The notes: generated by a model not told the origin, from the letters alone. Positions 6,568-18,238 are shown, numbered from the stretch's first letter. The stretch: 32,000 nt of DNA from Nostoc punctiforme PCC 73102 (GCF_000020025.1 NC_010628.1:1-32000), one strand, 5' to 3'. Made by a program: numbers and translations.

Positions 6568-7167
6568 ATGAAATCTTTGCACCGTCCCGATCTTTATAGC
6601 TGGTCTAATTTCAATCCGGCAAGAAATATTGATTTCAATGGGATTGCCTGGATTCGCCCAGATGGAAACATCTTGATTGACCCAGTAGCCCTATCAAACC
6701 ATGATTGGAATCATTTGAAATCCCTCGGTGGTGTAGTCTGGATTGTGCTGACGAATTCTGAGCATGTCAGGGCAAGTAAAGATATTGCCGATCAAACTTA
6801 TGCTAAGATAGCTGGTCCAGTGGCAGAAAAAGACACTTTTCCCATACCTTGCGATCGCTGGCTGTCTGATGGTGAAGAATTTGTACCAGGGCTGGAGGTG
6901 ATTGAACTCCACGGCTCGAAAACTCCCGGTGAATTGGCTCTGTTACTGGAAGAGACAACTTTAATTACAGGGGATTTAGTCAGGGCACGTAAAGCAGGTA
7001 GCTTAACTATATTGCCAGATGACAAGCTACTGAATCGAGAGGAGGCTGTTGCTTCTGTTCGCAGGTTAGCAGAACTGAGTCGAGTTGAAGCAGTGTTGGT
7101 GGGGGATGGTTGGCCCGTCTTCCGCGATGGACGCGATCGCTTAGAGGAACTTGTAGCGACGCTGTAA
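6568..7167 (+). CDS. MBL-fold metallo-hydrolase family protein
   Basis: 199-aa ORF. The pattern FNGIAWIRPDGNILIDP..VVWIVLTNSEHVR..LITGDLV is typical of small cyanobacterial metallo-beta-lactamase-fold proteins. The metal-binding motif looks atypical, so activity is uncertain. Confidence 0.8.
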   Translation: MKSLHRPDLYSWSNFNPARNIDFNGIAWIRPDGNILIDPVALSNHDWNHLKSLGGVVWIVLTNSEHVRASKDIADQTYAKIAGPVAEKDTFPIPCDRWLSDGEEFVPGLEVIELHGSKTPGELALLLEETTLITGDLVRARKAGSLTILPDDKLLNREEAVASVRRLAELSRVEAVLVGDGWPVFRDGRDRLEELVATL

Positions 7168-7214
7168 ATGGGTGGGGCGATGCCTATGTTCAGGGCTAGC
7201 CCTACGCTCAATTT

Positions 7215-10200
7215 TTACTGAGTGTTAATATCATCGCAGAGGGTGCGATCGTTTTTCATATTAGGGTTATTTTTCAGATAACCAGATGCCAATTTACAGG
7301 CACGCTTGAGTAAATCATCTAAATTATTATTAAGATATATTTTTCCCTCATTGCTATTAAGCTCAATTGTCTTATTGGTATTAAGGTTAAATCGCTCGCC
7401 TAAGAAAGAACTGATGGGATAGAGTAAGTAAGGATCTTTCGTAAACCAACTATTGAGAAAATATAGACCTGTATTATAATCAGAACCAACAGCTAGCATT
7501 TTGTTGTCATTATCAAAACTTAAAGTATTACTGCTATAATCGGTTTTTAAGGGTTCAATTTTTCCATTATCTAAATTCCCCAATTTAGCAGAAGAACCAC
7601 TAATAAAGGCAATTTTCTTATCATCAGCTTGGAAGCGTATATTTGTAATTTTATCAGGATCGCGGATGGTTGGTTTTTGTAATTTACCATCAAGATTCCA
7701 GAGTCTTATAATTTGATCGTCACTAGCAGAAGCAATAATTTTCCCATCATGAGTGAAACTCACACTATTGACTTTATCACCGTGTTTTATAATCGGTTTA
7801 AGCAATTTACCATTTCTATTCCAAAACCTTACTGTTTTGTCGTCACTAGCAGAAGCGATGATTTTTTTATTAGGGCTGAACGCAACACTATTAACCCAAT
7901 CAGTATGACCCCATAAGGTTGCTAGCGGCTTGCCTTTTAAATCCCAAAGTTTTAAACTATCATCTTTACTAACGGAAGCAACTGTTTTTTTATTAAGACT
8001 AAACCTAATAAAAGAATCTATATTATTACATGAAAAATTTGCGTGACCTTTAATAGATTTTAACTCTTGAAACTTGGCACTATCTTCAATACTCCAAAAC
8101 TTCATAACATACTTAGAGCGATAAATCTCATTCGACCAATAAGTTTTGCAGCTAGTAGCACCAATGATTTTTCCATCAGAACTAAAGCTAACCTTATCAA
8201 TGCTAATATCATCATTTATTCCATTACTAAATCCTGAAAGTTGTTTGATAAAATTACCGTTACCGTTATAGATGTTCACAGTGTTATCAGCACTTGCAGA
8301 AGCAATATATTTATTATCAAAACTAAACGCAACATCATTAACACCTTTAATGTGTTTTTGTAAAGTTAGAGGTTCATAGTTATATTTTTTAAGCAAAAGC
8401 TGATTTATATCCCAAATTTTTATAGTATTATCAGCACTGCTAGTTACAATTTTTGTACCATCATGGCTAAAATCTACTTTTGTGATTGTGTCATTATGTC
8501 CTTTGAGTGTTGCGCGTGGTTCTCCTTCAACAGTCCATAGCTTGACAGTATAATTCTGGTTAATAGAAGTAATGTACTTGCCATTAGGATTAAATTTTGC
8601 GCTGATCATGCCATAGTTATCAATAGATTGAAGCGGTTCGCTATTGCTGATATCCCAAATTTTTATCTCACCACTATTAGCGCTAACTGACATGAGCTTT
8701 TTGTCATCTGGACTAAACTCTACGCTTTGTACCTTGGCATTATGTCCAATCAATGGCTTAACGGGAGTACCATCACTTTTATAGAGTTTAACTAAATTGT
8801 CATCACAGATAGCAAGCATCTTGCTATCATGACTAAATATAACAGTTGTAACTTTATCACTATCTGTTTTCAAGGCTTGAATTAAGCTGCGATCGCGGCT
8901 ATTCCAAAGTTGCACTTTATTGTCATCACTGATAGTAGCTATTATCTGACTATTAGGGCTAAAGCTCACATTGGTAACTTGTTTTGTGTTTCCCTTTAAA
9001 TGTCCTATAAATGTTCCGTCACTACTGCGCCAGAGTCTAACAAAATTATCTGCACTGGCAGCAGCAACCAAATTACCATCAGGGCTAAAGTCAATGGTTG
9101 TGATCTTATTGGTGCTACCTTTTAAAGTAATTTCCTTGTTGGTATCTAGTTTCCAGAGCTTTAAGATATCGTCAGGGCTTCCAGTTGCAAGTGTTTGATT
9201 ATCTGGACTAAAGCTAAGAATTGAACTATCTCCTCGGATAGTTTTAATGTGAGTGCCATCACGGTTTTGAAGTTCTATACTATTGTCAGAACTGCCAAGA
9301 GCGACTGTTTGACCATCAAAACTAAACCTTATTTTCCTATTTATATCTTCATCTCTATCGGTTCTCTGGAACGAAGGTAATTTATTGTCGTCAATATCCC
9401 AAATCTTCACAACTCCATCTTTACTAGCTGATGCAAGTAGCTTGCTATCAGGACTGAAGCTTGTATAAGTAATGCTATCATCATGTTTAAAAATATTGTA
9501 ATTAGAACATTGACCTTGAAATATTATAGTTTCAAAGAAAGTTTTCTTATCTTCACTATCCTGGAATATGCTTAATTGATTATCAAGACTATTATTTAAA
9601 AAATCTTTCAATCCAAATGAATTCTTACAAACATTTTCAGCACTTTTGATGAGGTGTGGTTTATCATCAGTAGACCAAACTCTTAGGTTTCCCTGTTTAT
9701 TAAACAAGCTAATAGCATCACCACTGTTGTTGAAATTCATGGTAAATGTGCCAGAATCATAAATCTCAGTAGGCTTATTTTCAAGTTTTTTTGGTGTCAG
9801 TTTCCAAAGTTTAACAGTGTCATACCGTCCCCCTGTAGCAACTGTCTTGTTGTCAGGACTAAAATTTACAATTATGTTTTTGTCATTAAATCTTTGTGGT
9901 AAGCTCTTAAGCTTACCATCTTCCCAACTCCAGATTTTAACTGTTTTATTCTTAGTAGTAGTAGCTAGTAGTTTATCGTTAGGACTAAATGTAATGAAGC
10001 CTAGACCATCTTTATCGATTTTCAAAATTTTTATTGGTTTAAATTTAGGAGTACTCCAGCTTTTACGTTCTGGAATATTCCAGATTTTTGCATTACCATC
10101 TTCGCTGACGGTAGCTAACATTTTTCCATCAGAGTTGAAGCTAATAGATGTTACACTTTTTTTGTGAGCTGACCAGATCCTTTCTTGACCATCAGAAATA

Positions 10201-13200
10201 TTCAATATTTTGACTTTGCCATCTTCACTTGCCGTAGCTAACATTTTGCTATCTTGGCTAAAGCTAAGGGCTGTAATTGCTTTATCATACCCTTCTATAC
10301 GGTTGATTTCTTTAATTTTATGAATTGCATTACTCAGATTTGAAATAACCTTTAGCCGAGTTTCAGGTATCACCCCTATTGATAAAAACTTTAGTTTTTT
10401 ACCTACTTTAATAGCTGATACTAGCTCTCCAAGCCCTATGTCATCTTTTGAAGAAATATCTGATGTCAGAGAAGTGTTGATGTAAGCTGCTGTAACCCCT
10501 ACTGCAATTACACTTATTGCAGTTATTAATCCTATTAATGTAACAGTTTGTTTGCGTGCAGTTCTTAGCTGTTGTGTCAAAACCTGATTAAGTTTGGCTT
10601 CGGTGAGTTTTCGTTGTTCTTTCTCCTTCTCTAACTCAGCAATTAATCGGGCTGATTGTTGTTCACGAACAAATGGTACTAAATAGTCATGAACTAATTG
10701 ATATCTATCAGCCGGAAATCCTGGTACTTGAAATACTAAGCCTGATTTCACCAGGATTTTCAAAATTAAATCTAATCTTGCAGGCTCTAATGCTAAATCT
10801 GCTTCTAATTCAGCACGATTTTTCAGAGGACGAGTATTATTTTCATCAGTTAACAAATACAAAACTAGCTTGGCGAACTGTTCGTTATTGTTACCACAGT
10901 CTTTAACTACTTCTTCTAAGAATCGCCCTACTAATTTTTCTTTAGGGCCTTGTTCTTGGTACTGAATCAAAGTTGTAATTTTCTCAGTTTGTAGTTGTGC
11001 TCCTACAACTTGTAATTCAATGGGGCGAATTTCGTTGAAATCTCTAGCTAAATCTCGTACTAGCTCATCAATTAGCGGTGGCTCTAGATAAAACTGAGAA
11101 CTTTCTGTTAAGCTTTGAATTACAGAGCGAGCATCTTCAGGCGAAAAGTTCCCTAAGTAATAAAGAATTTTTTTATCTAATATGTTGTTATCAATTGCAT
11201 CCAAATGAGTTAGGCGATTACACTCTAGTAAATAATGGAGATAATCTTCTCTAAGAGAGAGAATAATTTTTACATAAGGAATATTAAGACAATCTCGGAT
11301 AAATTCAAAAAAAGGTCTCCTTTTATCTTGGTCTTTATAAGCAAAGAAGAACTCTTCAAACTGGTCAAAAATCAGAACAGTTAACAAACCTTTCTCTATA
11401 TTTTTGTTCAACTCTTCTACAAAACCTGCCATCGAGTCTAAGAACAGAGGAAAACTTAAGCCTCTAACTTCTTCTAATGATTCTACGAAGCAAGTTCCTA
11501 AAACTTTTGTCCAATCTGTATAAACTTGCAACAGAACAGGCACGACATCACGAGCATCTATGGCTCTTTGTTTTAAAGCTGGTAATAGCCCTGCCTGAAC
11601 CAGGGAACTTTTACCTACTCCTGATTGACCATAAATGACCGTCAGTTTGTGGTCATCACGACTAATTCTTTCAATTAATCGATTCACATCTTGCATTCTT
11701 CCAGAAGCAGCAATCTCTTGGGTTACTGCTGCTTTTGGATCGGGTACTGCAAGTCCAGGATTAATAACTTGGAGTTTAGATTGTAAGCGTCCTGCGCCTA
11801 CAAAAGCTCGTAGTCCATACTGTTGCTCAATTGAACGTTGCTCTAGTTTAACTTGGAATGCTTCTAAATAGTTACCTTGGTCAAAGTAGAGCGATCGCAG
11901 TTTCGCCAAAATGCGAATATATAGTAGTGGATCGTGTTGAGGATTACTTTCAGAACGAGCGGTTTCTAAATTAGCGATCGCCTCTGGAATCTGATTGAGA
12001 TTTTGTTCAGCTTCTGCCAATAAAAGTAAGTATAAATTTTTATAAGATTTGCGTTCCCACTCCCAATTAATTATTTCTTCTGAAGAAATATTGGCATTCG
12101 TTTGTAATGCTAGTTCTGCATATTCTTTAGCCTCTACCCATTGAGATTTTTTCAGCACTACCTCAGCCATTAATCCATAACTGTAGCCAAGTCTGATTGG
12201 TTCAGGGTAAATTTGGTGTAGCTCAATAGCTACTAACGCAACTTTTTCTAACTCATCCCACGCTTCTAATCTGGTTAAAACTTCACCCCAAGCGTTAATA
12301 AATTTTGCTGCTAAATTTGGGTATTTGTGCTGCCTAAAACCCTCAACACATTTTTGAAAGTAATCTTTAGCTTTTAGACAAGCTTCGTAATATTCAGAAC
12401 GATGCAAAATCGCATACTGTTCCCACCAAAAACCAAGATGCCAAAGTAAACATCCGTAACGTTTCAAATCATCAGATGACACATTTTGTTTATTTTTGAC
12501 TTTCTTTTCCCAAACAGTTATACTTTGCTCATAATAATTTTTCGCTTCAGATTTATGTCCATTAGCATCTGCTTCCCGACCTAGCAAAAATTGTAAGCTT
12601 GCCTCTAGTTCAGGCTCTAATTTTTCTATAGATATTTGTAAATCCCTAACAGCAGATTCAATTTCCCCTAAATGGAGAATACCAAGGTCAAGATTGAGGT
12701 AAGCATTATCGAGAAACTTTCCAGCACCGACGTTAAGAATTGCTGCAAATAGGGAATTAACAATTTGGTGCAGATTGTTGATTAACTGATTCGTAGCAAT
12801 TTTAAACTTAATTGAGTTACCTGTCCAACTCTTAAAATCAGGCATCAATTGAATCAATTTTTGGAAGGTTGGATCATTTACCCAAATAACTATCGGAAAC
12901 TGGAAATTCTTACGAAATTCCTCTCTTACCTGATTTGTAGAAATTAAAAGTTGGTCAATTGCATCTACTAATTCCAAATCAAATATCATCAAAGCTTGAG
13001 GTAGTTGATTTCCCAGGTTAGCTTCAATTGTCGTGTAAAGTGTTTTGATAGATTTTGACAGATGTAGCTCTCGAATCTCAACTTGACATTCTTCTTTGAT
13101 CTGCTGCACCATCTGGTCTCGCAAACTGCAATAGTTACAACGTGCCAAAATTAACGCAAAGTGTCCCTGAGAATTTGTAATTGAGCGGATTAGTTTTTTC

Positions 13201-13253
13201 AGGGAGCGTTCATTGTAGACAACTACATCTTCAGGTTGATAAGAGTCACTCAT
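7215..13253 (-). CDS. giant STAND-class NTPase with N-terminal unknown alpha/beta module, TPR-like region, hydrophobic helix and 21 WD40 repeats
   Basis: 2012-aa uninterrupted ORF. Walker A is [22 protein letters not shown] (GQSGVGKSS = nt 11604..11630). Walker B is VLIFDQFEE (nt 11352..11378). Helical TPR-like repeats span about aa 225-470. A hydrophobic helix [22 protein letters not shown] sits at aa 903-925 (nt 10479..10547). I counted 21 WD40-like units over about aa 985-1930, plus the C-terminal tail [28 protein letters not shown] seen in cyanobacterial WD40 proteins. Confidence 0.92.
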   Translation of the reverse strand: [2012 protein letters not shown]

Positions 13254-14554
13254 AGCTTAAATTTTTTCGATTCTGCGATCGCCGGGTTAATATCAAACCA
13301 GCGTCCGTCAACATCCCGGTATTCAAATAAAAACATACTTCGTAAAAGAGTTTGGTATTCGTCCTCTCCTTTGACATTATCCCTCTGTTGCAAAACTTGT
13401 AGCAGTAGCGCCCACTCGCTATCACTAATTGCTGATACCAAATCATCCCGATACTCACGGATGACCATTTCCAGACAGTCGCGTCCAATAGGGGGGTCAT
13501 CTTCTTGTAAACAACTGTAAAGCAAAACTAACAGATTTCGCACATGTCCACCACTAACTCGGCAAAGACGATCTAAGGTTTCATCTGAATCAAAAACTTC
13601 ATTAATGTGACTCAAACGTTGTGTTTCTCCTAGCCAGGGAAACGCCCGTGCTAAAACCATTTGTTGCAGTAGCTTCATACCTTCTAGGTTGTAGGTTCCT
13701 TCACGGTTTTTGACTGTCACCATTGGTAATACTACAGGTTTTATCCCGAAACGGTTAGTAAGAGTGCTTAATTCATTGGAGAAAATTAATACTAGGGGAA
13801 TGGTATAAACCAAATGACAATTGAGTTTTTTTAACTGCTCACCCCGATCAATGAACAGATATTCTGGCTGAGAACGGCCAGAGGCTTTAGGAGAGATATC
13901 GACGCGATCGAGATTATCAATAATTACCACTAATCCCTGATAACCTTGTAGCTTCAGTTGCTCTTTGGCACGCTCTAATACCTGTTGATTAATAGCTTCT
14001 AATATGCTACTAGTCCGAGGTTCTAGGTATTGGCGCAACTGGCTGCGGAGTCTGGGACTATCTTTAGTCTTGGCAGTGACCTTACCAATTCCCAAAGGTA
14101 ATGAAAATTCAAATTCTGGAACTACTGGTGTTTGTAAAAAATCTGCAATTTCATTAAACAAATCGACAAAGTAGCTTGGTCTAAGTTTGATTTTAACCTT
14201 TTCTAAACTGGCGCTAACTTGACGAGTTATTGCTAACAAAATATCGCTGACATCCACATCTGCCATATCTAAATCAGCACTGGACTCAAAGTAAACTACA
14301 TGAAAGCCTTGCTTTTCTAATTCATCTTTGAGTCGAAATAGTTCTGTAGATTTACCACAGCCAATATGTCCAGTGAATAATTGGCAGGTTGACTCATCTG
14401 GTTGATTAGCGATCGTCCGCCGTAAACGTTGAATTACATTGCCTCCACGAACTGGTGAGAAGTCAATATAGTACTGTTGGTCTTCTTTATTCTCAATTTT
14501 TAGAGTCTTGCTGGGATTACAGGCATTAAAAAACTTAATAGGGTCTAAAGCCAT
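13250..14554 (-). CDS. stand-alone P-loop ATPase (ORC/Cdc6- or STAND-like AAA+), upstream partner of the giant WD40 protein
   Basis: 434-aa ORF. Walker A is TGHIGCGKST (nt 14345..14371) and Walker B is LVVIIDNLD (nt 13907..13933). A sensor-2-like SGGHVRNLLVLL is followed by a short C-terminal helical, possibly winged-helix, region. GAGGAA lies 7 nt before the ATG. Its TGA (13250..13252) overlaps the ATG (13251..13253) of the next gene. Confidence 0.9.
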   Translation of the reverse strand: MALDPIKFFNACNPSKTLKIENKEDQQYYIDFSPVRGGNVIQRLRRTIANQPDESTCQLFTGHIGCGKSTELFRLKDELEKQGFHVVYFESSADLDMADVDVSDILLAITRQVSASLEKVKIKLRPSYFVDLFNEIADFLQTPVVPEFEFSLPLGIGKVTAKTKDSPRLRSQLRQYLEPRTSSILEAINQQVLERAKEQLKLQGYQGLVVIIDNLDRVDISPKASGRSQPEYLFIDRGEQLKKLNCHLVYTIPLVLIFSNELSTLTNRFGIKPVVLPMVTVKNREGTYNLEGMKLLQQMVLARAFPWLGETQRLSHINEVFDSDETLDRLCRVSGGHVRNLLVLLYSCLQEDDPPIGRDCLEMVIREYRDDLVSAISDSEWALLLQVLQQRDNVKGEDEYQTLLRSMFLFEYRDVDGRWFDINPAIAESKKFKL

Positions 14555-14702
14555 TACGGTTTCCTCTTACTACTTAAAAAATAAAAGTATAAATTATTGC
14601 TTAAAATTATTAATTATAGTTTCAGTATATACTAGTACATACAGATAAAAAATCTTCGTAAAGTAGAATCTCACTTACTTAAGCAAAAATTGCTACCAAA
14701 GA

Positions 14703-14775
14703 GATAGTAGTTCCATCTTTCGCAATACAAGCGATCGCTTAAAGGAACTTGTAGCAACGCTTTAAATGGTTGGGT
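14703..14775 (+). pseudogene. orphan, diverged copy of the last ~20 codons, stop and first ~10 nt of 3' flank of the MBL-fold gene
   Basis: 14731..14775 against 7133..7177 gives 40/45 identical. In the MBL frame the copy reads DSSSIFRNTSDRLKELVATL-stop, against DGWPVFRDGRDRLEELVATL-stop in the intact gene. There is no similarity further upstream, and an in-frame TAG lies at 14664..14666. Confidence 0.7.
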
Positions 14776-14843
14776 AGTACAGCTAGCTGTGCTACCCTAC
14801 AGGAGATTGTGGTTCTGATAGATAAAAAAGGCTGTAATAAAAA

Positions 14844-14863
14844 TTGTAATATGAATATTACAA
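14844..14863. promoter_or_regulatory. perfect 20-bp palindrome TTGTAATAT-GA-ATATTACAA upstream of ribD (candidate operator)
   Basis: ttgtaatat (14844..14852) and atattacaa (14855..14863) are exact reverse complements separated by 2 nt. The site lies about 120-140 nt upstream of the candidate ribD starts. Confidence 0.3.
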
Positions 14864-14984
14864 ACTGGTGCAATTTAAAACAGCTAATAACAGCGCCTGA
14901 ATTTGACTCTGTTTAATTAATTATCAGCAGCAAAGCGCGATTCTCCTGTGGAAAGGCTGCGCGATCGCGTGCAGAATATTTACA

Positions 14985-16226
14985 GTGTTGCCGCCTAAAA
15001 TTATGGATAATTCCCCAGTGGTCGCTCAAACAGATGCATCCTTACCAAATTACACTCAGGAAAATATACATCTAGTGGAGTCAGCAGTTATAAAAGAAAA
15101 GATCGGAACTGATTTTGACTCTCGCATGATGCTGCGGTGTTTGGAACTTGCTCGCCGCGCTTTAGGACGGACTTCCCCAAATCCTTTAGTGGGAGCGGTG
15201 ATTGTCAAGGATGGCGAGATTGTCGGCGAAGGGTTTCATCCGCGTGCAGGTGAGCCTCATGCAGAAGTGTTTGCTTTGCAAGCAGCAGGCGTTGGCGCAG
15301 CCTCTCCCCAGGAGAATCGCGCTCGTGGTGCAACAATCTATGTCAACCTTGAGCCTTGCAATCATTACGGACGGACTCCCCCTTGTTCGGAAGGATTGAT
15401 CCAAGCTGGAGTAGCAAAAGTCGTAGTGGGTATGGTTGATCCCAATCCACTGGTAGCTGGAGGTGGTATTGCCCGTTTACGTGCGGCTGGGATCGAAGTG
15501 TTAGTAGGAGTAGAAGAATCAGCTTGTCATCAGCTAAATGAAGCTTTTGTACATCGCATTCTCTACAAACGACCTTTGGGAATTTTAAAATATGCCATGA
15601 CTTTAGATGGCAAAATTGCTACTACCTCTGGTCATAGCGCCTGGGTGACAAGCCAAGAGGCCCGCAGTGAAGTACATCAACTACGGGCGGCTTGCGATGC
15701 AATAATTGTCGGCGGAAATACAGTCCGACAAGATAATCCTTATTTAACCAGCCATCATCTGGAAGCACATAATCCCCTGCGGGTGGTGATGAGTCGTCAT
15801 CTCAACTTACCGGAAAGTGCCCATCTGTGGAAAACTGCGGATGCTCCAACTTTGGTGTTGACTCAAAAGGGCGCTAACCCCGATTTCCAAGAACTGTTGC
15901 TCAACCAGGGGGTGGAAATCGTGGAATTAACATCACTTACACCAGATAACGCAATGGCGTACTTATATGAGCGGGGTTTTTGTAGCGTCTTATGGGAATG
16001 TGGCGGTACCTTAGCTGCTAGTGCGATCGCTCAAGGAGCAGTGCAAAAAGTTTTGGCATTTATTGCCCCAAAAATCATTGGTGGTAGCATTGCTCCCACA
16101 CCAGTGGGCGATTTAGGTTTTACTACCATGACTGAGGCATTGTCTCTAGAACGTGTTCGTTGGCGTGTAGTAGGCTCAGACTGCTTGGTGGAGGGTTATT
16201 TTTCCCAAAAAGCCAATAGTCAATAG
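14985..16226 (+). CDS. ribD: bifunctional riboflavin biosynthesis protein RibD (pyrimidine deaminase / uracil reductase)
   Basis: The deaminase zinc motifs HAEVFAL and LEPCNHYGRTPPC are present. The reductase domain has GILKYAMTLDGKIAT and ECGGTLAAS. The ORF-track start at 14985 is GTG. The ATG at 15003 or an internal Met near MMLRCLELARRALG may be the true start. Confidence 0.93.
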   Translation: MLPPKIMDNSPVVAQTDASLPNYTQENIHLVESAVIKEKIGTDFDSRMMLRCLELARRALGRTSPNPLVGAVIVKDGEIVGEGFHPRAGEPHAEVFALQAAGVGAASPQENRARGATIYVNLEPCNHYGRTPPCSEGLIQAGVAKVVVGMVDPNPLVAGGGIARLRAAGIEVLVGVEESACHQLNEAFVHRILYKRPLGILKYAMTLDGKIATTSGHSAWVTSQEARSEVHQLRAACDAIIVGGNTVRQDNPYLTSHHLEAHNPLRVVMSRHLNLPESAHLWKTADAPTLVLTQKGANPDFQELLLNQGVEIVELTSLTPDNAMAYLYERGFCSVLWECGGTLAASAIAQGAVQKVLAFIAPKIIGGSIAPTPVGDLGFTTMTEALSLERVRWRVVGSDCLVEGYFSQKANSQ

Positions 16227-16268
16227 TAATAACACTGGATTATCAATCAATTAATCGTGATTTTGCTA

Positions 16269-16577
16269 TCATGAACACTGACGTTCATGGGCAAGATCGC
16301 GTATAAGGGCTAGCCGAGATTGAATGTAGTGGCACAGAAAGTCAGTTTCGTTAGGATCTAACAAAACTTGCGTTTCGGTTTGTTTCACTAACCACTGCAC
16401 CAAGCTAGCATCATCCAGTTGTAAGAGGAGCTTGGCTTGGGCGGTTTCAACCACTGACCAAAGCTGACGCATGATTGTAGGAGTCATCAGACCTCGATTG
16501 AATAATGAGCTATTAGCTGTCTTTAGATTACACAATTCCGATCGCAATTTACGACATGAATGTAGAAGCTGAGACAA
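16269..16577 (-). CDS. hypothetical small protein
   Basis: 102-aa ORF with no motif I recognise. The real start could be an internal Met (MTPTIMRQLW). Coding status rests only on ORF length and its position between genes. Confidence 0.45.
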   Translation of the reverse strand: MSQLLHSCRKLRSELCNLKTANSSLFNRGLMTPTIMRQLWSVVETAQAKLLLQLDDASLVQWLVKQTETQVLLDPNETDFLCHYIQSRLALIRDLAHERQCS

Positions 16578-16726: not shown

Positions 16727-18238
16727 CTAATTCTTTGTATCCCACATATCTTTGGAAATTGGATGTATTTCACGCACTACTTTCCATAAACGATGTCTTG
16801 CTCGGTAGGTATACCAAATGAAAATGACTAAAGTCTGCCAACTCACTAATATAAAAATATTTTGAGTCCCTAGTGCAATAGCGATAACTAGAAATACAAA
16901 TACAAAGGCACGAAGTATTTCATTGGGTAATTCTTTTAACCACTCACTTTTGCTATAACGATGAACAAAATAGGGTATCCAGCGACTAATCACTTGTGAT
17001 GCAAATAACATTGACCCGATGATATTGGTTTTTGTCACTACCAGAAAGCCAAAGCACTTGTAAGCTTGCAATACCAAGTGAAGCCAACTTCGTGTCTGCT
17101 TATCAATATAGTTGTAAATAAAGAAAGTCACGCGTACAACCAGGAGTAGACCTATCCAGGATGCCATGTCAATTAAAGCTGTTTTTAGATCGATGGCACT
17201 AACTTTGGCAACTAAACTCACATTACTTGAAACAATTTTAGTCAATTCCAAAATAAGTATTCCAGGAACAGCGAAAGCCAAAGCCCAAACCCAAGGCTGC
17301 CATGTATTGACTCGGTTCTTATAGCGTTGGTAAGTTTCTGATAAAGTTGGTTTTTTCTCAAACTTTTCAGCAACTATGTCATTTTCTATATAACCTAGTT
17401 CATAGATGCACCAGAAAGAGAGTAGTAAAAAAAACATACTAATGCTATGAATAATCGGTTGATTATTCACCCAACTTAAACCTAGTAGTAAGATCGTAAA
17501 ATCATCGTATAATATCTTTGTGAGAAAATATCGCACACCTGGTCGCTTCGCCCGCTCTAGATACAAAAACGGAATATAAGTATTAGCCATCGCTGAAACA
17601 TACTTGGCTTCTGGCCAAATAACTAAGCATGGAGTCGCTACAGATGCAAGTAATGGGTTATCGTCGGTTGAGTCAGTGATTGCGATCGCACGGGAAACTT
17701 CATCCTCACCCAAAATTTCTTTCACCAAAGAGTATTTTCCTTTTTGTCGATCTATACCTCCCTGCCAAAACCGACAAGTTATGACAGCATTAAAAGTTAC
17801 GGGTAGGTGTTTGCACAGCGAACGAGCAATAAAACCAAACCCGTGGGTGGCAACAATTACACGCGAATTTTTTTTCTTTGTGAGTGCGTCGATCAGAATA
17901 GTGTTTCCATAGGCTTGAGCTAAATGTTTAGCTCGCCATTGCCACAAAATTACAGTCCAGGGGAAAAACAGTGTTACTACTAAAACCCTTATCCAATCTC
18001 TTGATACCTCTCCTTTTATTTTTCCTGGCAACCAATTCCACGGTTTGAGAAGATTCAACAAGGTAAGTAATAACCACCCAAGTATGCGGGGTCTTAATGT
18101 GTCGAGATACTCTTGTGTTGAATTTCGGAGAAAAATAGTTTCATCTAAATCTACTAGGATTGGCACACTATCTGATGCCGTTTCAATGATGTTTACCACT
18201 TCGGACACAGAAGTCTCATAATTTAGTGTATTCATCAA
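16727..18238 (-). CDS. HAD-like domain fused to a polytopic membrane domain (hypothetical)
   Basis: 503-aa ORF. The N-terminus has HAD motif I-like VDLDETIF and a later ITDSTDDNPLL. The C-terminal half has multiple hydrophobic helices, with YELGYIENDIVAEKFE and YNYIDKQTR faintly resembling degenerate UbiA-type Asp-rich motifs. Confidence 0.75.
   Translation of the reverse strand: MMNTLNYETSVSEVVNIIETASDSVPILVDLDETIFLRNSTQEYLDTLRPRILGWLLLTLLNLLKPWNWLPGKIKGEVSRDWIRVLVVTLFFPWTVILWQWRAKHLAQAYGNTILIDALTKKKNSRVIVATHGFGFIARSLCKHLPVTFNAVITCRFWQGGIDRQKGKYSLVKEILGEDEVSRAIAITDSTDDNPLLASVATPCLVIWPEAKYVSAMANTYIPFLYLERAKRPGVRYFLTKILYDDFTILLLGLSWVNNQPIIHSISMFFLLLSFWCIYELGYIENDIVAEKFEKKPTLSETYQRYKNRVNTWQPWVWALAFAVPGILILELTKIVSSNVSLVAKVSAIDLKTALIDMASWIGLLLVVRVTFFIYNYIDKQTRSWLHLVLQAYKCFGFLVVTKTNIIGSMLFASQVISRWIPYFVHRYSKSEWLKELPNEILRAFVFVFLVIAIALGTQNIFILVSWQTLVIFIWYTYRARHRLWKVVREIHPISKDMWDTKN

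Follow-up and report, generated by a model that had tools for sequence, protein, structure and literature searches.

An inserted ATPase and STAND gene pair in Nostoc punctiforme as a candidate NLR-like module with a predicted membrane anchor

The window analysed here, a stretch of 32,000 nucleotides of Nostoc punctiforme PCC 73102 (GCF_000020025.1, NC_010628.1:1-32000), carries a pair of minus-strand genes that encode two P-loop NTPases: a protein of 434 residues, termed here the small ATPase, and a protein of 2012 residues, termed the giant (ACC78809.1; WP_012406838.1; UniProt B2J2B7). The ATPase gene ends in a stop codon that shares bases with the start codon of the giant gene (Table 1). Both open reading frames (ORFs) and their ATGA overlap, which an earlier note made from the sequence alone had described, are confirmed in the sequence, and the Walker and sensor-2 motifs quoted there are all present. 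The pair was compared with related loci and contigs labelled L002 to L110, with WIN denoting the window's own pair.

The small ATPase has a Walker A motif (GHIGCGKST), a Walker B motif (VVIIDNLD) and a sensor-2-like motif (SGGHVRNLL), each invariant or near-invariant in 13 cyanobacterial homologues from different orders. An AlphaFold2 (AF2) model built from 66 homologues, with a pLDDT of 94, consists of a nucleotide-binding domain (NBD) in which strands 2 and 3 are separated by an insert of four helices, a helical lid that bears SGGHVRNLL, and a C-terminal winged helix. A Foldseek search of the PDB with this model returned ORC and Cdc6/Orc1 chains at the top (7tjf_A, 1w5t_A and 2qby_A; E about 1e-6), followed at lower ranks by Apaf-1, TnsC, RdrA and the mitoribosomal protein mS29. 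As modelled, NBD, lid and winged helix together make up the ORC/Cdc6 fold, and the ORC/Cdc6-like character proposed earlier is borne out at that level. By sequence profile the protein is no member of the family, with no Cdc6 or ORC match in Pfam or NCBIfam. Its Pfam matches are borderline and generic for P-loop proteins, namely AAA_22 (28.1 bits, cut-off 27), NPHP3_N (24.9, cut-off 24.8), KAP (20.7, cut-off 20) and ATPase_2. KAP is also the name given by NCBI and UniProt to some of the homologues. KAP NTPases reportedly have transmembrane helices inserted in the P-loop domain; a classical KAP NTPase was rejected for the small ATPase because it has no transmembrane-like hydrophobic segment (peak 19-residue hydropathy of 1.35), and the insert at residues 100-205 forms soluble helices in the AF2 model. 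The protein is best described as NOD-only, a STAND/ORC-type switch module without sensor or effector.

The giant begins with an alpha/beta domain that contains the motif ARCNY. In the AF2 model this domain is made of four beta-alpha units (strands 33-38, 60-64, 87-91 and 120-125) followed by more helices, and the ARCNY motif occupies the place where a P-loop would sit. Residues C39, N40, E94, N107, R110, E112, R114 and W124 are conserved. The domain matches no family in Pfam and no enzyme family by sequence profile, and its profile gave only non-significant matches among PDB sequences (MarR, and the AAA-like domain of Sir3 with E 0.05). The idea of a recognisable degenerate copy of the small ATPase or of the nSTAND1 NBD finds no support at the sequence level, with hhalign probabilities of 0.4% and 0.1%. 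We propose that the ARCNY domain is the docking site for the small ATPase. The TPR-like superhelix that follows is backed by structure, with an AF2 pLDDT of 87 and best Foldseek matches to the TPR domains of LGN/Pins, KLC and Rap, in agreement with the TPR-like helices seen before.

The NTPase module of the giant belongs to the nSTAND1 family. Pfam nSTAND1 (PF20703) matches residues 518-859 with E 3.4e-32 and 113 bits, above the curated cut-off of 27.1, and GQSGVGKSS (Walker A) and IFDQFEE (Walker B) are intact, so that the NTPase looks active by its motifs, as the earlier note held. It has only the P-loop in common with the small ATPase (hhalign probability 12%). A hydrophobic segment of 23 residues, with a Kyte-Doolittle 19-residue mean of 2.32 and flanks of net charge +3 (N side) and -1 (C side), is found at the equivalent relative position in 57 of 69 orthologues. 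It is a predicted transmembrane helix placed between the NTPase and the WD40 blades, which would give the giant an nSTAND1+TM+beta-propeller architecture. The segment is basic on its N-flank and acidic on its C-flank, so that the positive-inside rule would put the WD40 array on the periplasmic side. This segment, the 175-residue N-terminal domain, which is not TPR, and the direct repeats that flank the pair (see below) had all been overlooked. A custom hidden Markov model detects 19 WD40 blades in the AT-rich C-terminal half; about three degenerate ones bring the total to 21-22, within one of the 21 counted before. The C-terminal tail carries the motif LDDLLxRxCxxxxxYLxxN...LC (window 7218-7322, residues ~1978-2012), with two conserved cysteines about 20 residues apart; the motif is common to the two lineages described below and is seen at the C-terminus of the L048 giant. 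Should the WD40 half lie in the periplasm, the two cysteines could be linked by a disulfide.

Table 1. Coordinates of the gene pair, its domains and motifs, and the edges of the insertion in the window.
Feature	Position	Strand	Residues or length	Remark
Small ATPase gene	13250..14554	minus	434 aa	
ATPase Walker A GHIGCGKST	14345-14371	minus	62-70	
ATPase Walker B VVIIDNLD	13907-13930	minus	209-216	
ATPase sensor-2-like SGGHVRNLL	13529-13555	minus	334-342	
ATGA overlap	13250..13253	minus		aagctATGAgtg; ATPase stop and giant start codons
Giant gene	7215..13253	minus	2012 aa	
N-terminal alpha/beta ARCNY domain	12729..13253	minus	1-175	motif ARCNY at 13131-13145
TPR-like superhelix	11814..12686	minus	190-480	
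nSTAND1 NTPase module	10677..11702	minus	518-859	with winged helix
Giant Walker A GQSGVGKSS	11604-11630	minus	542-550	
Giant Walker B IFDQFEE	11352-11372	minus	628-634	
Predicted transmembrane helix	10479..10547	minus	903-925	TVTLIGLITAISVIAVGVTAAYI; coiled-coil-like stretch just before
WD40 array	7464..10301	minus	~985-1930	~21-22 blades
C-terminal tail motif LDDLLxRxCxxxxxYL	7275..7322	minus		conserved
Upstream non-coding region of the pair	14555..14702	minus		inside the insertion; presumed promoter
Left direct repeat	7105..7176	plus		true 3' end of the metallo-beta-lactamase gene, last 20 codons and stop
Left edge of insertion	~7205-7221			
Right direct repeat	14703..14774	plus		relic metallo-beta-lactamase 3' end, readable as last 20 codons and stop
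Terminator-like palindrome	14769-14800			after the right repeat
Homology to empty site resumes	~14959			

Relatives of the small ATPase occur in at least 594 species in a scan of one genome per species, and a representative library holds 389 clusters at 50% identity that score below 1e-30 against it. A giant with the same four modules lies directly downstream, on the same strand, in 76 of 83 non-redundant loci, and four of the seven loci without one are contig ends. Every protein with the N-domain, TPR and nSTAND1 that was looked up has the ATPase gene immediately upstream, including a form of 853 residues without WD40 in Desmonostoc, two tandem pairs in Lyngbya and a split form in Kovacikia. 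The pairing is far beyond chance, and the coupled two-gene module proposed in the earlier note is supported. Since the ATPase also stands in front of the forms that are split or have no WD40, the invariant core consists of the ATPase and an ARCNY-TPR-nSTAND1 protein, a core that is often extended by the membrane helix and the WD40 array. The four-nucleotide ATGA overlap recurs in L006-L009, L011, L092 and L094, among them an Acaryochloris plasmid and one Lyngbya pair, and the gene structure of the window pair is kept in L006, L008 and L009. No homologue was found in a phage collection.

Some loci depart from the simple arrangement. Three orphan ATPases (L028, L033 and L056; ATPase at 10001-11350) form one subclade and are not followed by a giant in the next 10 kb; two of them have kept their place beside ftsQ-ftsZ, and the next gene in L033 is convergent and glucoamylase/phosphorylase-kinase-like. 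The Lyngbya aestuarii locus L092 (1-10538) is a tandem array in the order ATPase, stand-alone ARCNY ORF of 165 residues (four-nucleotide overlap), full giant, second ATPase and giant without WD40, and may include a decayed third copy.

The window pair has been inserted recently between a metallo-beta-lactamase (MBL) gene and ribD. A direct repeat of 72 nucleotides with 81% identity brackets both genes, with similarity reaching about 100 nucleotides, and the relic in its right copy, read straight from the aligned sequence, gives ...FR...DRLKELVATL* (DSSSIFRNTSDRLKELVATL*). Three metagenomic Nostoc contigs (L105, L109 and L110), 91-97% identical in the flanking genes, have an empty site with a gap of only 104-218 nucleotides between MBL and ribD, to which the left junction and the ribD-proximal sequence of the window align. 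The repeats and the empty sites thus corroborate the inserted cassette suggested in the earlier note. A different cargo of 2 kb occupies the same site in L100-L102 and L104.

The MBL-ribD interval (window 7168-14984; L105 2564-2780) is a variable hot spot, filled in the window by the NTPase cassette of 7.7 kb. In L100 the cargo (9816-11975) comprises ORFs of 423 and 178 residues with the appearance of a pyridine-nucleotide oxidoreductase and a membrane protein. At the empty site the MBL 3'-end motif occurs a second time, as a short copy immediately upstream of ribD.

Related pairs show further signs of mobility. In Tolypothrix carrinoi (L008), which belongs to the same clade, the pair is flanked by direct repeats of about 330 nucleotides with 90-97% identity; the upstream repeat blocks enclose a gene for a ParE toxin. 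The paralogue on Acaryochloris marina plasmid pREB2, whose genes overlap by four nucleotides, is flanked by HicAB, RelE/ParE, two tyrosine recombinases and a NACHT gene. Other paralogues reside on three plasmids of Nostoc sp. UHCC 0302 and on plasmids of Nostoc sp. ATCC 53789 and Calothrix sp. NIES-4101.

A second, core lineage (L002, L005 and L012-L085) is found next to the division genes. Pairs of this kind make up 68 of the 83 loci; they come from Nostocales and, among Oscillatoriales, from Microcoleus, Lyngbya, Okeania, Tychonema and Kastovskya, and are divergent from ftsQ-ftsZ, as in L048 (ftsZ 7165-5849, ftsQ 9072-8251, ATPase 9977-11308, giant 11398-16446). The ATPase tree of this clade follows taxonomy, the ATPase is 84-97% identical across Nostocales, and all domains, WD40 included, are under purifying selection, with ratios of nonsynonymous to synonymous substitution (dN/dS) of 0.02-0.30. 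The two genes are separated by 40-950 nucleotides; the spacer is 650-950 nucleotides (~11330-12280) in the Microcoleus pairs (L012-L031) and 40-190 nucleotides in most Nostoc core pairs. The core pair is present in N. punctiforme strain NIES-2108, and N. punctiforme probably carries both core and accessory copies. Another recurring neighbourhood, which spans different orders, is formed by an acetyl-CoA synthetase gene divergently upstream of paralogous pairs in Nostoc sp. T09 and 106C (L047 and L049) and in Kovacikia minuta (L093).

The window pair falls in a separate clade (WIN and L006-L010) that is never found beside ftsQ-ftsZ. Comparison of its genes with those of the close strain L006, at a dS of 0.17-0.39 along both genes, gives a dN/dS of 0.03 for the small ATPase, 0.05 for nSTAND1, 0.14 for the N-domain and 0.18 for TPR. 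The WD40 array is the fastest-evolving part, with values of 0.36-0.58; its substitutions lie in the loops and on the surface of the blades and spare the core positions. A recombination mosaic was rejected as the source of the fast WD40 evolution, since dS is similar in all domains. A fast WD40 array next to slow NTPases is the rate pattern of an NLR-type sensor. Relaxed constraint is also possible, because dN/dS of the array stays below 1 and the substitutions are spread over many surface positions; sharply localised hypervariable positions, as in fungal HET WD repeats, were not seen in the array.

Distant members of the ATPase family carry additional domains, in the form of fusions to TIR, CHAT+TRADD-N (P0301), TPR repeats or a second STAND module. 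Seen from the TIR fusion, the ATPase belongs to the output side. On a plasmid of Calothrix NIES-4101 (L086) the operon order is ATPase, ATPase-TIR and an nSTAND1 protein with two tandem ARCNY domains, TPR, nSTAND1, a coiled coil and a C-terminal membrane helix, without WD40. The presence of two ATPases and two N-domains in this operon suggests one-to-one docking. The CHAT+TRADD-N+ATPase fusion in L090 (8265-10511) stands alone, with no nSTAND1 neighbour, in a mobile-element-like context with an ArdA anti-restriction gene, a UvrD-type helicase and many small ORFs.

Several described systems resemble the module. The nSTAND1 clade was described by the Aravind group (Kaur, Burroughs, Iyer, Aravind, eLife 2021, PMC8195603); in the source tables of that paper 'nSTAND1+TM+BetaPropeller' has 278 entries, and a separate TIR+DrHyd effector gene typically comes before these genes. 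The same tables contain, with no comment in the text, 'AAA_22 -> TPR+nSTAND1+BetaPropeller' for Nostoc sp. T09 and RF31YmG (PMC8195603). With these entries the module is a variant of a described kind, and as the giant lies within a known clade and has a recorded TM/beta-propeller architecture, the module is not categorically new. The earlier note had placed it outside the named systems, which stands in so far as no PADLOC model matches and falls for the giant, whose nSTAND1 NTPase and tabled architecture are known. The pair in L047 (Nostoc sp. T09) was rejected as the one tabled next to caspase-bDLD3 (PMC8195603), as an acetyl-CoA synthetase gene lies upstream of L047; since it differs from the pair in Kaur et al., Nostoc sp. 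T09 holds several paralogous pairs. A one-line mention of an MNS-clade 'Npun2340/2341 family' in Leipe et al. (2004) serves as a lead only, and the literature search found no discussion of this locus, its ARCNY domain, the pairing of the two genes or the synteny with ftsQ-ftsZ.

The two-gene TIR+DrHyd systems share with the present pair the NTPase clade, a C-terminal half with TM and beta-propeller, a separately encoded partner gene immediately upstream and their occurrence in multicellular bacteria. They differ in the upstream gene, which here encodes an ORC/Cdc6-like ATPase and no enzymatic effector. Compared with nSTAND1 conflict systems in general, the giant has ARCNY and TPR in place of an EAD, Death-like, caspase or TIR domain, and one lineage is a conserved core pair beside ftsQ-ftsZ. 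The nSTAND2 systems consist of two adjacent STAND NTPase genes with a predicted mixed ring (PMC8195603), and are alike in that two NTPases stand side by side and a single complex is predicted. There, however, one partner is inactive and bears GT4 or HEPN effectors, and the partners are mutually related, whereas here both motif sets are intact, the NTPases share only the P-loop and no effector was found.

Sensor repeats joined to a STAND switch are the shared design of Avs, bacterial NACHT proteins and eukaryotic NLRs, including the paired NAIP-NLRC4 and the sensor-helper pairs of plants. As in these, the sensor here evolves faster than the switch, paralogues are many and some are mobile, and the second NOD protein could be a helper. 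Unlike them, the sensor has no N-terminal effector and has a predicted membrane anchor, and the presumed helper is of ORC/Cdc6 type, not a paralogue of the sensor. With ORC/Cdc6 and TnsC the small ATPase shares, as modelled, the NBD with a helical insert between strands 2 and 3, the lid with a GxxxR sensor-2 and the C-terminal winged helix, but TM-scores are about 0.4, sequence-family membership is absent and there is no replication link beyond the nearby dnaA, whose proximity is coincidental given the evidence for insertion. The genes of the vWA-MoxR ternary system, an adjacent MoxR ATPase and vWA protein, occur neither in the window nor in those related loci that were examined.

On balance, and with modest confidence, we read the locus as an accessory, horizontally mobile copy of a cyanobacterial two-gene NLR-like (STAND) module, in which a membrane-anchored sensor and switch works with a partner ATPase in surveillance or conflict, such as the sensing of phage, plasmids or non-self. 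The giant would be a membrane-anchored receptor whose active nSTAND1 switch lies between two ligand-binding arrays, the TPR helices and some 21 WD40 blades, and the NOD-only ORC/Cdc6-like ATPase would take the slot that separately encoded effectors (TIR+DrHyd) hold in other two-gene nSTAND1 systems. We infer a physical interaction between the two proteins, a direction of signalling, a kind of output and a biological role along the following lines. A ligand would be bound by the fast-evolving WD40 array, which would release NTP-dependent oligomerisation of nSTAND1 at the membrane. The N-terminal ARCNY domains may then cluster the small ATPase one-to-one into an active oligomer, and this oligomer would be the output or an adaptor, given that relatives carry TIR or caspase (CHAT)+TRADD-N on it. 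The output of the window pair may be the ATPase's own activity, for example nucleic-acid binding via the winged helix and the helical insert, or a recruited effector encoded elsewhere.

A number of observations weigh against this reading. The remaining genes of the window are housekeeping genes and form no defence island. Scans with Pfam, NCBIfam and PADLOC found no effector domain in either protein, as the earlier note had also concluded, and neither protein nor any flanking gene has a TIR, caspase, EAD or Death-like domain, so that the giant is not an nSTAND1 protein of the effector or EAD type. PADLOC models gave no match to Avs, NACHT or another system, only a weak and non-diagnostic one to PDC-S20 (17 bits) and one to mad3 on the P-loop alone. 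The match in number between N-domains and ATPases is the single 2:2 case of L086, and the stand-alone N-domain ORF of L092 breaks a strict 1:1 relation; neither profile similarity nor a coevolution test supports an ATPase:N-domain interface. The small ATPase is 65-98% identical across orders, which is unusually conserved for an immune component, and dN/dS in the WD40 array remains below 1, with the changes widely spread, which would also fit relaxed constraint. The core lineage is inherited vertically beside ftsQ-ftsZ with its WD40 array under purifying selection, which suggests that this lineage, at least, has an endogenous function. The literature search found no experimental or expression study of the pair.

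Somewhat unlikely, in our estimation, is that the window pair is a duplicated copy of an endogenous signalling system with no part in defence, in which a membrane STAND switch reports a cue from the envelope, the septum or a neighbouring cell and acts through the ATPase on division or differentiation. The divergent arrangement with ftsQ-ftsZ in 68/83 loci of Nostocales and Oscillatoriales, the core ATPase tree that mirrors taxonomy, the 84-97% identity within Nostocales, the low dN/dS of all core domains (0.02-0.30, WD40 included), the conserved membrane helix and the lack of an effector in either protein all speak for it. The caveat of a non-defence role in the earlier note accordingly carries real weight, because the best-conserved lineage behaves unlike a typical defence system, and the behaviour of the core lineage fits an endogenous role, possibly division-linked, better than immunity. 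The window pair, however, stands outside the ftsQZ-linked clade and is a recent insertion whose relatives have empty sites; its WD40 dN/dS is 3-10 times the core-clade value, and the closest non-core relatives lie on plasmids with toxin-antitoxin and integrase genes or carry TIR. Synteny with ftsQZ alone is also no proof of a functional link. A more specific scheme, which we regard as rather unlikely, would unite the two lineages in a bacterial sensor/helper NLR pair: the ARCNY domain of the membrane-anchored nSTAND1 sensor would nucleate polymerisation of the NOD-only ATPase, the ancestral copy, retained by filamentous cyanobacteria as a core pair, would be functionally tied to the ftsQ-ftsZ locus, for instance as a checkpoint that halts division or sacrifices a cell of the filament, and mobile paralogues would diversify their WD40 arrays for conflict.

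It is unlikely that the small ATPase is a regulator or chaperone (loader) of the giant and not the output, with the effector encoded elsewhere or represented by the N-terminal domain. The ATPase is far more conserved than its partner, its structural matches include the loaders and remodellers ORC/Cdc6, TnsC, RFC and RuvBL, and the polar ARCNY-domain residues C39, N40, E94, N107, R110, E112 and R114 could, judging by sequence, be catalytic; yet the TIR and CHAT+TRADD-N fusions put the ATPase on the effector-carrying side, and the N-domain matches no enzyme family by sequence profile. An incidental adjacency, or a cassette that is decaying without current function, would agree with the relatively high dN/dS and the AT-richness of the WD40 region. 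It is nearly excluded by both ORFs being intact over 7.3 kb with all catalytic motifs present, by a dN/dS of 0.03-0.05 in the NTPase parts, by the pairing kept in 76/83 loci and by the same gene structure in L006, L008 and L009.

The rest of the window is ordinary chromosome near dnaA and contains, besides the MBL gene and ribD, a glutamine-synthetase-like gene and genes for an aminotransferase, a HAD hydrolase, a Ser/Thr kinase, an amylase and PEP synthase. The HAD-like hydrolase gene (503 aa, window 16727-18238, minus strand) is missing between the homologues of orf102 and the kinase in the close syntenic strain L006 and represents a second strain-specific indel in the window. Consensus scans for promoters and terminators did no better than on shuffled sequence, and an Rfam scan of the window gave no match.

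STAND and NLR receptors are a common core of innate immunity in animals, plants and bacteria. To our knowledge, nearly all studied bacterial STAND receptors have the effector on the same polypeptide. In the present family, which occurs in at least 594 cyanobacterial species, the usual effector slot is filled by a second, highly conserved ATPase, and the family ranges from a core pair linked to the division locus to mobile plasmid and cassette copies with TIR fusions. This combination makes the family, in the genetically tractable N. punctiforme, a tractable subject for the question of how two NTPases share NLR-type signalling, and for a possible takeover of an immune-type switch for housekeeping in multicellular bacteria.

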